The position numbers and the translations under genes are program-made. The notes below the pieces were generated by a model that was given only the letters and a program-made list of their open reading frames with translations, did no database searches and had not been told where the DNA came from. Below are positions 2,765-10,862 of a DNA stretch of 10,862 nucleotides, piece by piece. This DNA comes from a virus: UHGV virus genome UHGV-1695878; one strand, 5' to 3'. Position 1 is the stretch's first letter; each line of letters starts with the position of its first letter.

Positions 2765-3940
2765 TTAGGCAGCATCTAAGAGAGTATTAAAGTATTCATC
2801 CATTAAATCAGGACTGTCGTCATCAATACAGAAAAATTCCGGTTTATTGATGCCGTAGAAGTGAGTATGTAGCTTGAATGTATCGTCATCAAATACATCT
2901 TTCGGGGATACCCACATATTAGCCTCGTCCGGTTGATTGGTTAGGTAGTCATAAACCAGTTGCTGTAAGTGTGGTAACTCATCAATAGTCAGAGTTTCCG
3001 ACCATCCATCCTTGAAATCTTTGTAGGGTGCTGCATGAGTCTTGAAGCGTTGTTTTACTTCATGCTCTAAATCAACGGCTTTCCAACCATCCTCAAACTC
3101 ATGAGTAAAGATTAAGCGGTGAGTGAAGTTGCTCTTTCTGGTTTGCTCTCTCATTCGTTCTTCTGGTTTTCGGGTAGTGATTCCAAATTTAATAAATTTG
3201 TCATCTAATAATTGAATGTAGAAACTAGCCTTACCCTGATAAGTCCGGTTAGACAGTTGCACCAGTTGGTCTTTAATGCAAAGCGGACAAGTGAAAGAAT
3301 CAGCACATCTTAAATGAGATTCCCATTCGTGGTTATGTGACTTGCAATAGGTTTTAAATTTAACATCCTTTAGGTGTGGGGTGTTTATGGTAAATCCTTT
3401 GAAGATGTAAGGTGTAGTCTCGCAACGTGCATTGATGATTGTCTCTTTGTCCTTAATAACTTCATCAAAAGTCTTGCCACTTCTTACCCGTTGGGATTTT
3501 TCAGCCATACAGATTTTGCAATCAAAATCGAAATCATCTTTGAGAGCATGTAATAGAGATGGCGTCATGATTTGATTGTGTTCAGGGCACAAAACACGGG
3601 CTTTCGTTCTATTTCGCCCTTTCCATTCTCCTTGCCATCCGAGGAATTTCTTTCCCTTCTCATTACAACGAGATTCCATTTTCAACCATACAGCCTTTTC
3701 AGTCTGGAGTAACTCACCCCCGTTAGTATCTTCCAGTTTGCGTAATTTGTAGTCCTTATATTCTTGTGTGTCTAAATTGTAGATTCGAAAGTAAGTGTGA
3801 TTACCCTTCCACGGTAGGATAAATCCACCAAATACGAAAGCAGGTTCCAGTTTAGCGATGATTCGTTGTTGGTACTCTTCCGGCGATAAACCGCGAGTTT
3901 TCTTAACAAAAGGAATTTCGGCAGCGTAAGCAAGTTTCAT
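2765..3940 (-). CDS. Cys-rich protein with T5orf172 (GIY-YIG-like) domain, 391 aa
   Basis: ORF track start at 4051 is TTG; the first ATG at 3940 has a strong SD (AGAGGAAActactATG), giving MKLAYAAEIPF... Cys clusters (CPEH...CKIC; CKSH...CADSFTCPLC) and a T5orf172-type core FYIQLLDDKFIKFGITTRKPEERMREQ. Family assignment from motif recognition only. Confidence 0.7.
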   Translation of the reverse strand: MKLAYAAEIPFVKKTRGLSPEEYQQRIIAKLEPAFVFGGFILPWKGNHTYFRIYNLDTQEYKDYKLRKLEDTNGGELLQTEKAVWLKMESRCNEKGKKFLGWQGEWKGRNRTKARVLCPEHNQIMTPSLLHALKDDFDFDCKICMAEKSQRVRSGKTFDEVIKDKETIINARCETTPYIFKGFTINTPHLKDVKFKTYCKSHNHEWESHLRCADSFTCPLCIKDQLVQLSNRTYQGKASFYIQLLDDKFIKFGITTRKPEERMREQTRKSNFTHRLIFTHEFEDGWKAVDLEHEVKQRFKTHAAPYKDFKDGWSETLTIDELPHLQQLVYDYLTNQPDEANMWVSPKDVFDDDTFKLHTHFYGINKPEFFCIDDDSPDLMDEYFNTLLDAA

Positions 3941-4094: not shown

Positions 4095-4664
4095 ATGATT
4101 CCAGTAATGGCTAAAGATATTGTTTTTACTCCTAAATCCTCCCGTGCTGCAACTCCATCGGCATTAGAACAACGCATTCTGACTCACATCAAAGAGAAGG
4201 ACTTACCGTTAGTCTTTCATGGCTTTCTGGGTGAGTTTAAAGGGCTTCATTCAAGAATTGCTCTTACATGTACCCGATGCGGTAATAGAGCCGACAAATC
4301 AGCTACTAACCTGCTTAATGAAGGTAAACGATGTGTTTGCTTCAATAGTGACTACTTTCAATATAAAGCGGGTGTGCCTTATCTCTATGTAATGAAGTCT
4401 GGGGATATTGGTAAATTTGGTGTTACAAAGTCAATCATCAAGCGACGTGTTAATCTGGGTGTACGCAATCCCGGTCATAACTTTGATATTGTCTTTGCTC
4501 GTGAAATGCCATCAATGAAACATGCTTTAGCCACTGAAAGAGCAATAAAGAGATTACTGGATGTGGGTATAGGCGGGATTGAATACGGCAAAACTGAAAC
4601 ATTCCACTACTGCAATAAATCACTAAACAATATAAAGAATATTGCAAGTGTGGAGTGGAACTAA
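4095..4664 (+). CDS. small zinc-ribbon + T5orf172 (GIY-YIG-like) domain protein, 189 aa
   Basis: ATG 4095 with SD GTGAGGT; Cys cluster CTRCGN...CVCF; then YLYVMKSGDIGKFGVTKSIIKRRVNLG...ATERAIKRLL, a T5orf172/GIY-YIG-like motif. Stop TAA 4662..4664 overlaps the uvsW ATG (TAATG), implying translational coupling. Confidence 0.7.
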   Translation: MIPVMAKDIVFTPKSSRAATPSALEQRILTHIKEKDLPLVFHGFLGEFKGLHSRIALTCTRCGNRADKSATNLLNEGKRCVCFNSDYFQYKAGVPYLYVMKSGDIGKFGVTKSIIKRRVNLGVRNPGHNFDIVFAREMPSMKHALATERAIKRLLDVGIGGIEYGKTETFHYCNKSLNNIKNIASVEWN

Positions 4665-6154
4665 TGCAAGATATTAAAATTCATTTTCAAGATTACAGTT
4701 TCGTTAAGGTTGATTGCTCTCCTTCCATCGGAATGGAATTAAGAGATTATTTCTCGTTTGAGGTTGAAGGGGCTAAGTTTAGCCCCCGTTACAAGTATTC
4801 CGGCTGGGATGGACGAATAAGACTGTTTACGCATGAAAATACCCTACCAATTGGACTATTAAAAACATTGGGTGTCTTCGTTAAAAATATGGGCTATTCA
4901 GTCTGGATTGACCCGCGATTGCTTGAGAAGGAAGATGTAACCAAAGACGCGATTAATGAATGGATTGATTCCTTAGAAGTGTATTCCGGTTCCAATAAAA
5001 TCAATCCTTACTGGTATCAGCGTGAAGCAGTCTTTCAGGGTATCCATAATCGCCGGAGAATGTTAGTTCTTCCTACCAGTGCGGGTAAGTCATTGATTGC
5101 TTGTATGCTGTCTCGTTGGTACTTAGAGCATTACACCGGAAAGGTGTTAATCATTGTCCCGACTACATCGCTAGTGGTTCAAATGAGGGATGATTTTATC
5201 GATTATCGGTTATTCCCTTATGAAGCAATTCATACAATGATGAGTGGTAGCGGGAAACATCCGGGAGAAAGGCTAATCACTGTTTCAACATGGCAATCAG
5301 CTTGCAAGATGCCCCCTGAATGGTTCAAACAATATGGAATGTTGATAGTTGATGAATCGCATAAGGCTAGTGCCAAAAATATTACCAATATCATTAACGG
5401 AATGAATCATTGCCAATTTAAGATCGGCATGACTGGTTCCCCGAAAGAATCAAAGTGCCATTTAATGCAGTATGTCGGGCTTTTCGGTGATATTTCTAAG
5501 ATCGTGAGTATTGACCGCCTGATGGAAGAAGGGCAGGTGACAAAACTGAAAATTAACTGTCTTTTCCTTCGTTATACCGATGAGGAATGTAGCGCGGTTA
5601 AGGGGAGAGAATATGCGGAAGAGATCAAGTATATTACATCTAACCCACGACGTAATAAGTTTGCTTGCAATTTGGCGCTAAAACTCGCTAAGAAGGGCGA
5701 AAACGTATTCCTGATGTTCCGCAATACTAAGCACGGAAAACTTATGTATGACGCGTTACAGAAGGTACACGACAAGGTTTATTATATTGACGGTGGAGTT
5801 AAGACAGAAGAACGTGATGAATTTAAGAAAATGGCGGAGGGTGACACCGGGATCATTTGTGTTGCGTCTTATGGTGTGTTCTCTACTGGTGTTTCAATTA
5901 AGAATTTGCACCATGTTATTTTCGGTCATCCAGTGAAGGAATCAACTATCGTTCGTCAGAGTATCGGTCGTGCATTGCGTAAACATGGTTCTAAGGATAT
6001 TGCAACGGTCTGGGATCTTATAGATAGCCTATGCATAATCGGTCGTAACGGAAAAGTCAAGCGCAAAAATTACGCGGTAAAACATGCACTTGATAGAATC
6101 CGCTATTATGTGACCGACAAATTCGACTATACAACTAAAACAATTGCTATATAA
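4664..6154 (+). CDS. uvsW: UvsW-type SF2 DNA helicase (T-even phage-like), 496 aa
   Basis: Start taken as ATG 4664 (ORF track begins at GTG 4655); GGAG 8 nt upstream. N-terminus MQDIKIHFQDYSFVKVDC plus SF2 motifs LPTSAGKS (Walker A), IIVPTT, DESH, MTGSP and QSIGRALRK. Colinear over its whole length with phage T4 UvsW as I recall it (MDIKVHF..., about 500 aa). Confidence 0.9.
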   Translation: MQDIKIHFQDYSFVKVDCSPSIGMELRDYFSFEVEGAKFSPRYKYSGWDGRIRLFTHENTLPIGLLKTLGVFVKNMGYSVWIDPRLLEKEDVTKDAINEWIDSLEVYSGSNKINPYWYQREAVFQGIHNRRRMLVLPTSAGKSLIACMLSRWYLEHYTGKVLIIVPTTSLVVQMRDDFIDYRLFPYEAIHTMMSGSGKHPGERLITVSTWQSACKMPPEWFKQYGMLIVDESHKASAKNITNIINGMNHCQFKIGMTGSPKESKCHLMQYVGLFGDISKIVSIDRLMEEGQVTKLKINCLFLRYTDEECSAVKGREYAEEIKYITSNPRRNKFACNLALKLAKKGENVFLMFRNTKHGKLMYDALQKVHDKVYYIDGGVKTEERDEFKKMAEGDTGIICVASYGVFSTGVSIKNLHHVIFGHPVKESTIVRQSIGRALRKHGSKDIATVWDLIDSLCIIGRNGKVKRKNYAVKHALDRIRYYVTDKFDYTTKTIAI

Positions 6155-6188
6155 CAAAAAAAGCGCCTCTAGTGGGCGCTTTAATTTT
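6155..6188. terminator. bidirectional rho-independent terminator between convergent genes
   Basis: AAAAAA-AGCGCC-tctagtg-GGCGCT-TTAATTTT between the uvsW stop (6154) and the stop of the minus-strand peptidase gene (6187). Confidence 0.6.
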
Positions 6189-8088: not shown

Positions 8089-8138
8089 TACGCCCCCGAT
8101 ATTTTATAATTTAATGGCAGAATTATTTAGATAAAAAT

Positions 8139-8172
8139 AATCCCGCCTAACTCAAAAGAATTAAGCGGGATT
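8139..8172 (-). terminator. rho-independent terminator downstream of the J-like gene
   Basis: Read on the minus strand: AATCCCGC...GCGGGATT stem followed by TTATTTTTAT, just 3' of the J-like stop codon (8191..8193). Confidence 0.5.
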
Positions 8173-8190
8173 AATTATTAAAATTAAATT

Positions 8191-10719
8191 TTAAGAAATA
8201 GAAATGCCAGTTGAGGCTTTCTTAGTTACAAGCACAGTCAAATCACTGATATATCCAATTGGGTTATAGTTGTTAACACCATCGCAAGAAACTTCAAACG
8301 TTAGCGTTACCGCCCCCTGTCCGGCTGGCATATCAATTACCCCACTGTACATACACCCACTGGTAGCGGTGCGGTCATATAGAACAGAGCCATTTTTCTT
8401 AACGATCAAACGGCATGTATCCCAAAGATCGTTATGTTCATAGCTGCGCATTGACCCATTGTGATGGATAGCTGGAATAATGATTTGTCGGTTAAATTTA
8501 TGGTCATCTTCAATACGCACTGTCAAAGTGCCGTTAGGCCAGTTGGCGTTTTTGTGCGGGAATCGCTTACCAACCGCTTTCACGAAGTCACCCCTAACCT
8601 GAGTAGCATCAAGCATACCCTTAATATCACAGCTAGAGTTAATCGTGACGTTGTTCAGAGTACCAGAATCAGCGGTAATATTTCCCCTGATCGTTGCGTT
8701 CATGAACGTAGCAGAGCCATTCTTGTTAATATGCCATCCGGTAGATCCGTTCCAGTTGGAAGACTGGATATAGTTACCGATTTTAGCATTATCAATTGCA
8801 CCATTTACAATCTTGGCATTGGTGATCGCGCCGTCCTGAATCTTCGCAGTATTGATCGCAGCATTGCCGATTTTAGCATTAGTGATAGCCGCATCATTAA
8901 TCTGGGCTGTCCCAATCGAGGCATTACGGATCATTGACCAGTCCATGTACACCTTGTTCCCTTCGACACCGAACGGAACAACACCCGCCGCGCCATCCTG
9001 CGGAGCTACCGCCAGTTTATCAGCCGTAAAGATGATTCTGGTTGGTTTAGCCGGATCATTGGTTGCGCTCATGTGAATACCAGCCACACGACCATCTGCA
9101 TTAACAGAAAGGTTGTATTTGCTGTTAATCGTCCCTGTCAGCTTATCGATCTTCGCTTCCGCTTCCTGGTTAACACCAGCGATCTTACCGTCCATTTCTA
9201 CCCGAACTTGTTCGATCTTAGTCGCGCTCGCTTGTTCGCTGGTAGCGATTACCTTTTTCAAATCGGTAACGGCTGCATCAACTTTCTTAGTAACGGTTCC
9301 GTTAGTTTCCGTTGTGATAGTCTTATGAAGTCGATCTAATTTGATGTCGGCATTCTCGCCAGCTTGAGCGATAGCATCAGCGATAGTTTCATCTAAGCGG
9401 TCTTGCAATCCGATCAAGTCCTCTAATGCTTCTTTGTCCTGATCGTCCCAGGTAATCGTAGATTTCATTTTCATGAAATACGGTTCAGACCAGACAGCAT
9501 CATCAGTACCGAAAATATCGTAGTGTGCCGCACGAAGATAATAATCACCGTCCGCAATATCAAAGGATGTATGACTAACGCTATTCGTGCTTACTGCCCG
9601 TGCATTAGAAAAATCCTGATTAGTTGCATACTGGATGATTGTACCCGCGTAATCTGACTCTAAAACATCACCATTCCAACTAACGAAAGCGGAGTTAAAG
9701 CCACCACGAGCGTTAAAACCTTTGATTGGTTTATGTTGTGGGTTAATCGCCACTAAACGCGCTGGGGCGCTCTGTGAGTTGTTATAGCCCCTAGCTGATA
9801 CTTCTACCGTCAATTCACGGGAAAGGCCGTTAAACTGGTTCATATCGAGCGTATAAGTCCATGATTCAGGATCGCGGGTACGGTACTGAATAGACTTACC
9901 AGCTTTGTTAGTGATCTTGATAATGTACGCATCAAACAAATCACTGAATTTATTCGTTTCGCCATTCACGACTACATCTAGTTTTTGCTGGTTTTCCCAT
10001 GCAATAGTAAGGTCATTACCTTTGAAGTAGTTCGGCTGGCTGCCAACGTTTTTGATTCGAATAACTGGAGTCGGTAACTCATAGGTAACAGTTGGATTCT
10101 GGTTAATCAGTTCCACCCAATCGGATCGCGCAATAATACCGAAAGCACATACACGATAATCATAAGACCTATCGCTTGCCAGTGCATTGATATTAAAAAT
10201 TTGCTGCGACGTCTGACCAGCTTTAATCCAGTTAGGTGATCCACTCACGCGGTAATCTACCTGGAAGCCATAACGGTTGAAATCTTCCGGTGCATCCCAT
10301 GTTAACGAGATATTTTTACCGTGGATAGTCTCGCCAGTTGCCTTAATTCTAAAGTTAGTCGGCGCTTGTACTGTCATTGAGTCCGGCAGTCCGGTCGGGC
10401 GATCATCTGGGTTTGCTGCATAGTTCAGATCGGTATAAATCTTGGAATTGTATTCCGTGGCGGTGATTGCCAGCATACCAGCGATACCAGAATCAATAGA
10501 ACGTTCAATCGCAGTAATACGCCAAAGGGAATTACTTAATTTTAATTCATCATGCGTAACGCTGATAACGTCCCAGACTTCGGCGGTGAATGCGTCGGTA
10601 GTCATGAAGCTGATAACCTGCGTTATACGTGATTTGTTGCGCTCTATGCTCGCCAGTTTATCAATCTGGGCTTTATCCTTAACAAAGCGATATTCTACGT
10701 CTTTAGCGATGATTCGCCC
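8191..10719 (-). pseudogene. lambda J-like host-specificity (central tail fibre) gene, 5'-truncated by IS1 insertion
   Basis: Frame open from 10734 down to stop at 8191..8193. The C-terminal ~170 aa align by eye with the lambda J receptor-binding domain ([16 protein letters not shown] vs lambda DMPAGRGNVILTFTLTS; [10 protein letters not shown] vs KKQALGISVV; [15 protein letters not shown] vs SNVTIAENCTINGTL); fibronectin-III-like repeats lie upstream. Only 842 codons are present against about 1130 for lambda J. The frame runs into the IS1 inverted repeat at 10720 and terminates inside it (TAA, complement of 10735..10737). The ATG at 10605 used by the ORF track is internal. Confidence 0.8.
8780..8929. 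repeat. five imperfect 30-bp tandem repeats inside the J-like gene
   Basis: Consecutive 30-nt units (gattttagcattatcaattgc.. / aatcttggcattggtgatcgc.. / aatcttcgcagtattgatcgc.. / gattttagcattagtgatagc.. / aatctgggctgtcccaatcga..) encoding 10-aa repeats of the form A-I-x-N-A-K-I-x-N-x. Confidence 0.6.
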
Positions 10720-10862
10720 GGTGATGCTGCCAACTTACTGATTTAGTGTATGATGGTGTTTTTGAGGTGCTCCAGTGGCTTCTGTTTCTATCAGCTGTCC
10801 CTCCTGTTCAGCTACTGAAGGCGTGGTGCGTAACGGTAAAAGTACTGCCGGACATCAGCGCT
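10720..10862 (+). mobile_element. IS1-family insertion sequence, left end (partial; continues beyond the window)
   Basis: GGTGATGCTGCCAACTTACTGATTTAGTGTATGATGGTG from 10720 is the IS1 left inverted repeat; the following sequence matches IS1 with a handful of substitutions. The 9 bp immediately outside (gattcgccc, 10711..10719) would be the target duplication if this is a simple insertion. Confidence 0.85.
10775..10862 (+). CDS. insA: IS1 InsA, 5' part (3' end outside window)
   Basis: GTG 10775; translates [29 protein letters not shown], the InsA N-terminus with its CPSC zinc-finger, a D-to-E variant of the K-12 form as I recall it. Confidence 0.8.

Follow-up and report, generated by a model that had tools for sequence, protein, structure and literature searches.

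The locus described here raises the question of what became of a J-like tail gene that runs into an insertion sequence close to the end of a prophage sequence. Either a part of the prophage was deleted and the rest is decaying, or one gene was interrupted and the remainder of the prophage lies on the far side of the insertion sequence. The stretch of DNA analysed (hereafter the window) comprises 10,862 nucleotides of the virus genome UHGV-1695878.

The J-type gene and its junction with IS1

A J-like frame on the minus strand is open from position 10719 down to a stop codon at 8191–8193, a length of 842 codons over which translation revealed neither a frameshift nor a stop, and the remnant bears no further lesions. 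The adjoining base, 10720, is the first of the IS1 left inverted repeat, GGTGATGCTGCCAACTTACTGAT. An in-frame TAA located 18 bases into the element (10738–10740) closes the J frame on its upstream side. A previous reading of this DNA, made from the sequence alone, had described a J frame that runs into the left inverted repeat and stops inside it, and the description is accurate to the terminal base. This is a J-type gene truncated by IS1. At the break itself the remnant lacks a start codon, and the 804-aa ORF that gene callers report begins at its first ATG, 10603–10605. The features of the region are as follows.

8138–8173, minus strand: hairpin resembling a terminator, with a run of T, just beyond the J stop codon (16 pairs including 6 G-C, by consensus scan)
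8191–10719, minus strand: 3' part of a J-type tail-tip / central tail fibre gene (translation; BLASTP, 84% identity to residues 376–1216 of WP_250777656; Pfam and PHROG families)
8194–8550, minus strand: predicted C-terminal Ig-like receptor-binding domain, residues 724–842 of the fragment (Pfam PF12421 Ig_GpJ_C, E = 3.1e-36)
8659–8826, minus strand: stretch (residues 632–687) that matches best within the repeats of the tail-tip fibre, or beta-prism, region (Pfam PF09327 Phage_Tail_Tip, E = 5.6e-22, two stretches)
10711–10719, no strand assigned: GATTCGCCC, the nine bases abutting IS1, which a simple insertion would have duplicated as its target site (sequence)
10720–10862, plus strand: IS1 left end, with the left inverted repeat (IRL) at 10720–10742 and the InsA start codon GTG at 10775; the end of the window lies within the element (megablast, translation)
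10738–10740, minus strand: in-frame TAA inside IS1 (translation)

The element at 10720 is a member of the IS1 family. When the last 143 bases of the window, which begin at this position, were compared by megablast with 5426 complete E. coli genomes, they matched annotated IS1 transposase genes in 4964, and in four of these the identity is 143/143. The GTG at 10775, about 55 bp inside the IRL, opens the InsA amino terminus, of which 29 codons fall within the window. Across the site of insertion, an IS1-free relative reads GATAATTCGACC followed directly by ATCTTGACG.

At the protein level, the PF12421 and PF09327 matches score 124.9 bits and 78.5 bits against cut-offs of 26.2 and 22, respectively, and matches to PHROGs fall in the tail fibre and central tail fibre J families. 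With respect to expression of the remnant, neither inspection by eye nor a scan revealed a hybrid promoter directed outward from the end of IS1, and the hairpin at 8138–8173 that follows its stop codon is a consensus match only.

Independent assemblies of the junction

The 804-aa ORF is recorded on six contigs, all of which appear to stop near the J gene. Two of these were read, a 45-kb contig from ERZ1314766 (three samples) and an 11-kb contig from ERZ27293596, and outside of IS1 the window is 100% identical to both. The first contig ends 179 bases past the junction and the second 107 bases past it, in each case inside IS1. The window and these contigs thus stop early in an element that, when complete, would measure ~768 bp and include insB', the right inverted repeat, and a 9-bp target duplication. 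The sole differences between the window and the two contigs are four sites at 10819–10843, approximately 100 bases into IS1. Such differences in the interior of the element are explained by assemblers that step from a unique flank into different copies of a multi-copy repeat.

The junction between IS1 and J could be an assembly artefact, that is, a chimeric join in a genome where J is in reality intact. The window does end in a repeat, and the interior of IS1 differs between assemblies, a sign that the assemblers are guessing there. However, the join coincides to the base with the start of the IS1 inverted repeat, the signature of transposition, and it recurs across samples and at the same base in assemblies made by different assemblers (contig names of the NODE_ and k109_ types), with the first 99 bp of IS1 identical in the window and in both contigs. 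Exact matches to the 804-aa ORF and to its 92-aa neighbour were obtained only from contigs ending in IS1 and from one 2-kb Logan contig; an intact J was found on none of the contigs carrying either exact protein. Since independent assemblies place the junction at the same base, and that base is the terminal nucleotide of IS1, the junction is considered to be real and due neither to chance nor to chimera. An artefact is extremely improbable.

The window stops within IS1 because short-read assemblers are unable to cross a multi-copy repeat. Its end is an assembly boundary and is not to be read as a biological truncation. As the contigs also end inside IS1, the absence of the 5' part of J represents a limit of assembly and not evidence of a deletion.

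An uninterrupted relative and the extent of the missing region

With IS1 set aside, the window is approximately 92% identical at the nucleotide level to prophages in 14 complete E. coli genomes, and all of these matches stop at 10716–10720. One of them, from E. coli Z0117EC0005 (NZ_CP098223.1, 1912144–1948137), is a prophage of approximately 36 kb that is situated between two halves of ycdX, near ycdY, ycdZ, and csgG. From attL, its order is a set of small genes, a 559-aa serine recombinase, a GIY-YIG/CapR endonuclease-like gene, a 189-aa CapR-domain gene, and a UvsW-like helicase; these are followed on the other strand by an M15 endolysin, four small genes, and J. To the right of J are a DUF6950 protein, hub and distal-tail proteins, the tape measure, the tube, an S74 tail fibre, the capsid, the portal, the terminase, and a Rha regulator, and the right end of the prophage is the other half of ycdX. 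By this comparison, about 25 kb would be expected to the right of IS1 in the window prophage.

The Z0117EC0005 prophage and those of about 13 other genomes share with the window the gene order, the recombinase, the endonuclease-like genes, the UvsW-like helicase, the endolysin, J, and the ycdX site. Comparison with an IS1-free relative had been proposed as a check on the sequence-only reading. The J protein of Z0117EC0005 is an uninterrupted 1216 aa with no IS1, and the other 11 genes match the window gene for gene. Unlike the window, Z0117EC0005 carries an extra 128-aa gene (395 bp) near attL, and its J protein is only 84% identical, with the differences mostly in the C-terminal third.

This J protein (WP_250777656), annotated as a "phage tail tip domain-containing protein", is the closest intact homolog of the fragment, and BLASTP aligns the two end to end from residue 376 of the homolog. 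Since the alignment begins at this residue, the break falls at codon 375/376 and 375 N-terminal codons are placed on the far side of IS1. J proteins in other relatives range from 1249 to 1259 aa with the N-terminal numbering unchanged. An earlier estimate of about 290 missing codons relative to lambda J must be abandoned; it equals 1132 minus 842, with no alignment behind the figure. Codon counts taken against lambda J are misleading when homology is confined to the receptor-binding domain.

The break can also be considered in terms of domains. In the intact 1216-aa relative, Phage-tail_3 (PF13550) matches residues 285–447 with 19.9 bits, which is below the 23-bit Pfam cut-off, and the break at 375/376 lies inside this weak match; the same domain in lambda J spans residues 330–498 with 147 bits. 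A Pfam search of the J fragment in the window returned no PF13550 match. In lambda gpJ, the domains are ordered as hub domains, FNIII, shaft, prism, and receptor-binding domain (PMC11101478). By analogy, the missing 375 codons would encode the N-terminal hub domains from which the tail tip is assembled, and the break would fall within the part that forms the baseplate hub in lambda gpJ.

The receptor-binding domain

Residues 662–841 of the fragment align with residues 947–1131 of lambda J (NC_001416, 1132 aa) at 40% identity (BLASTP, E = 1e-36). Outside of the last ~185 residues of lambda J, no similarity was detectable by BLASTP. The Pfam domains that are specific to lambda, FNIII-A_GpJ, Ig_J, and Ig_J_second, were found in lambda J and were absent from both the window fragment and the intact relative. 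FN3/Ig-like matches of the fragment were weak and involved other tail fibres and titin.

These comparisons make the C-terminal domain a homolog of the receptor-binding domain of lambda J and a member of the gpJ C-terminal family, as judged by its sequence. The C-terminal Ig-like receptor-binding domain and the Phage_Tail_Tip prism region are common to lambda gpJ and the J remnant, and in the relatives of the window prophage J is likewise the last gene of the tail module. There are also differences from lambda. Among sequenced phages, the receptor-binding domain is closest to the J proteins of EHEC lambdoid prophages (VT1-Sakai, Stx2a phages) at 52–53% identity, and the Phage-tail_3 match of the relative is sub-threshold. 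A search of PDB structures matched the fragment to lambda gpJ (8iyk, 8xcj) and more strongly to 9wca, "A8 gpJ 713"; a receptor for "A8 gpJ" was not found in a literature search. The domain had been likened to the LamB-binding domain of lambda. This comparison stands for the fold family, given PF12421 and the 40% identity to lambda J, but it does not extend to the receptor: with an identity of only 40% that includes indels, and with a closer relationship to the EHEC lambdoid J proteins, LamB binding cannot be deduced.

The genes that surround J

The 11 ORFs of the window other than J are full-length and collinear with those of the IS1-free relative, with identities of 77–99%. The 189-aa gene is four codons longer than in the relative and the other lengths are equal. 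No second lesion is present in the visible 10.7 kb. The first ~90–136 bases of the window are a remnant of ycdX. At least one gene of the leftward operon, the M15 endolysin, serves phage lysis, and the remaining four have no assigned function; a consensus scan places a terminator-like hairpin at 6160–6182, between uvsW and the endolysin. An earlier description of an integrase, a UvsW module, and a leftward operon with intact frames and terminators is correct insofar as the frames are full-length and hairpins are present; the integrase, however, is a 559-aa large serine recombinase with Resolvase, Recombinase, and Zn-ribbon domains.

The UvsW/endonuclease block is common to all of the relatives inspected, which identifies it, at the level of sequence comparison, as conserved backbone and not as strain-specific cargo. 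Given that four genes of the leftward operon have no assigned function, nothing marks them as cargo. At the DNA level, uvsW is about 85% identical to that of lytic T-even-like phages. A megablast search of a phage collection matched uvsW only, and the best J match in that collection was 41.5% identity to phage DCP80. The collection searched contained no cultured representative of the ycdX-integrated prophage family.

Two further proposals can be made. The 842-codon J cassette, with its FN3-like, shaft, prism, and receptor-binding regions, might serve as a reservoir of receptor-binding domains for incoming lambdoid phages by recombination, or the prophage might be a domesticated remnant kept for its T-even-like UvsW helicase/endonuclease block. 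Neither has specific support, and both are considered highly improbable.

Other insertion sequences in the prophage family

Insertions in the same part of the prophage were encountered among the relatives. In CP149945.1, an IS3-family element at about codon 328 splits J into halves of 333 and 940 aa, and the full tail module is retained upstream. As in the window, the insertion sequence lies in the N-terminal third of J within the same prophage family, and a short-read assembly of the lineage breaks at the IS. Unlike the window, the element encodes an HTH_Tnp_1/rve transposase and is not IS1, its site is different, and both flanks are visible, making it a demonstrably simple insertion. In strain 14EC007, IS1A is positioned between J and the 92-aa gene with both flanks kept. 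From these sequences, IS insertions in this part of the prophage family are recurrent, and they are simple wherever both sides can be seen.

Insertion sequences in the morphogenesis genes of E. coli and Shigella prophages are commonplace. Examples are found in E. coli among the lambdoid prophages of O157:H7 Sakai and the cryptic prophages of K-12, where IS elements occupy morphogenesis genes and the prophage is classed as defective with many of its genes intact. For these prophages, in contrast to the one in the window, the whole sequence is known and several lesions are usual; the window prophage has one lesion and its remainder is unseen.

Search for DNA beyond IS1

A simple insertion would predict a right junction in which the IS1 right inverted repeat (IRR), ending ...AAGTTGGAGTCATTACC, is followed by GATTCGCCC and then by ATCTTGACG... 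The 5' part of J and the structural module would lie beyond IS1. Databases were searched for both sides of the element. The left J/IS1 junction had no exact match in GTDB species genomes or in IMG/VR, the predicted right junction (IRR and GATTCGCCC) was absent from GTDB species genomes, and no junction-crossing sequence was found among the complete E. coli genomes. No relatives of the J fragment were confirmed in IMG/VR.

A search with the 375 residues of the relative, together with a listing of clusters, returned many contig-end fragments of the J gene. Among the proteins listed, none was an N-terminal J fragment with the IS1 read-through tail ...GRIGNDSNLLIVFYVQIMPDDFVMQLHRF; the unnamed ENA/Logan members of the clusters lie mostly outside the proteins listed, and the negative is accordingly weak.

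A degenerate pattern for both predicted junctions gave three matches on metagenome contigs, all of which were rejected as chance matches in unrelated genes. Two of the three flank a single IS1 insertion, one on each side, in a transporter-like gene in which the 9-mer occurs by chance.

Decay or simple insertion

The sequence-only reading took the locus for a decayed prophage with cargo retained under selection. In its fuller form, the 5' end of J was lost together with part or all of the structural module, for example through an IS1-mediated adjacent deletion or recombination between IS1 copies, and the recombinase, the UvsW/endonuclease block, and the lysis genes were kept for the benefit of the host. 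IS1 promotes adjacent deletions, and a loss of 5' J is compatible with this property. None of the sequences retrieved contains the 5' part of J, and the retained genes are all intact. Nevertheless, the absence is explained by contigs that end inside IS1, the visible 10.7 kb bears a single lesion and the J remnant is undecayed, the retained genes, the endolysin included, are the conserved backbone of the family and not strain-specific cargo, and the IS insertions seen in relatives are simple. The claim of decay was built on a single lesion and on a window whose last 143 bp already belong to a repeat, and nothing visible supports it. Decay by deletion is regarded as unlikely, though of all the alternatives set out here it is the one to be taken most seriously.

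One lesion, intact neighbors, and the simple IS insertions of the relatives make a recent simple insertion of IS1 the most likely event. The undamaged J remnant and the undamaged 10.7 kb indicate that, measured against the pace at which pseudogenes decay, the insertion is young. The known copies of the lineage, from a handful of samples, are identical, and its divergence from the relatives predates the insertion, so that a dN/dS comparison of the J remnant would not be informative on selection. Thus, the probable history is a simple and probably recent insertion of IS1 in the J gene of a ycdX prophage, with loss of tail-tip function.

The proposed mechanism may be summarized as follows. IS1 would have inserted itself by transposition at codon 375/376 in a tail-tip gene of J type, the product of which serves as central fibre and baseplate hub, within a prophage of about 36 kb integrated by a serine recombinase in E. 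coli ycdX. The insertion would part the N-terminal 375 codons from the FN3-like region, the shaft, the beta-prism, and the receptor-binding domain. A copy without the hub part would be unable to build a functional tail tip, and infectious particles would not be expected unless IS1 excises or a helper phage complements the defect. A probable loss of virion production, proposed in the sequence-only reading, is reasonable in this light, as the missing third would correspond to the hub domains by analogy with lambda gpJ (PMC11101478). From the structure of the lambda protein, it is likewise reasonable to expect no infectious virions from this particular copy.

An IS1 in a prophage morphogenesis gene is a well-known kind of event, and its occurrence in J matters little in itself. 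The ycdX-integrated prophage family, on the other hand, is uncharacterised though annotated in RefSeq E. coli genomes, and it may deserve a separate look.

Attachment site and the attL side

The window opens (1-136) with the 3' remainder of ycdX, a host gene interrupted by the prophage, and the far end of the approximately 36-kb prophage in E. coli Z0117EC0005 adjoins the other half of the gene. The serine recombinase thus has its attachment site within ycdX. Near attL, at approximately positions 386-391, the window is without a 395-bp segment found in the Z0117EC0005 prophage (L001, 19392-19786). This segment encodes a 128-aa hypothetical gene that is present in both Z0117EC0005 and 14EC007.

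The IS1 end of the window

The window and the 45-kb public contig from ERZ1314766 differ at only four positions (10819, 10822, 10837 and 10843), all of them within the IS1 sequence and roughly 100 bp past the junction. At the level of InsA, the differences are mostly synonymous with a single Asp to Glu change. The IS1 version of the window is matched at 143 of 143 positions in four complete E. coli genomes. The confinement of the four differences to IS1 suggests that the separate assemblies traced separate copies of the element.

The 9-bp target GATTCGCCC that abuts IS1 in the window is also found in two metagenome contigs, OGDJ01005924.1 (L006) and OGDJ01006175.1 (L007), that terminate in opposite IS1 ends. 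These ends adjoin GATTCGCCC and its complement within a membrane-transporter-like gene. The two contigs seem to represent both flanks of a single IS1 insertion unrelated to that of the window, with the target common to both insertions by chance.

The J gene in related prophages

Intact J homologues open with a long, hydrophobic Gly/Ala-rich stretch (MGFEVLVGAVIAGASAGMAAAATFSVMTAVAIGMAAGAMTLIAS...).

L001 31236-31100: N-terminal end of the intact J relative; the Gly/Ala-rich start is also present in the homologues P0001-P0004

Many of the database entries for the J gene are contig-end fragments. In E. coli CP149945.1 (L012, 6001-11113), an IS3-family element is inserted at about codon 328 of J, splitting it into ORFs of 333 and 940 aa. 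In E. coli 14EC007 (L011, 16670-17367), an IS1A lies between J and the 92-aa gene. The two insertions are independent events in the same region of related prophages.

The UvsW-like helicase block

2765-3940 (-): CapR-domain / GIY-YIG endonuclease-like neighbour
4095-4664 (+): CapR-domain / GIY-YIG endonuclease-like neighbour
4664-6154 (+): UvsW-like helicase gene

The UvsW-like gene is 80-85% identical at the DNA level to its counterpart in Krischvirus, a group of lytic RB49/Phi1-like T-even phages, and the rest of the window is far less close to any sequenced phage. The gene's carrier here is a temperate prophage with a serine recombinase. Two CapR-domain / GIY-YIG endonuclease-like genes flank the helicase gene, and the block is kept in the relatives that were inspected. 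Given the high DNA identity and the endonuclease-like neighbours, the UvsW-like gene may have been transferred fairly recently, perhaps in connection with homing endonucleases.
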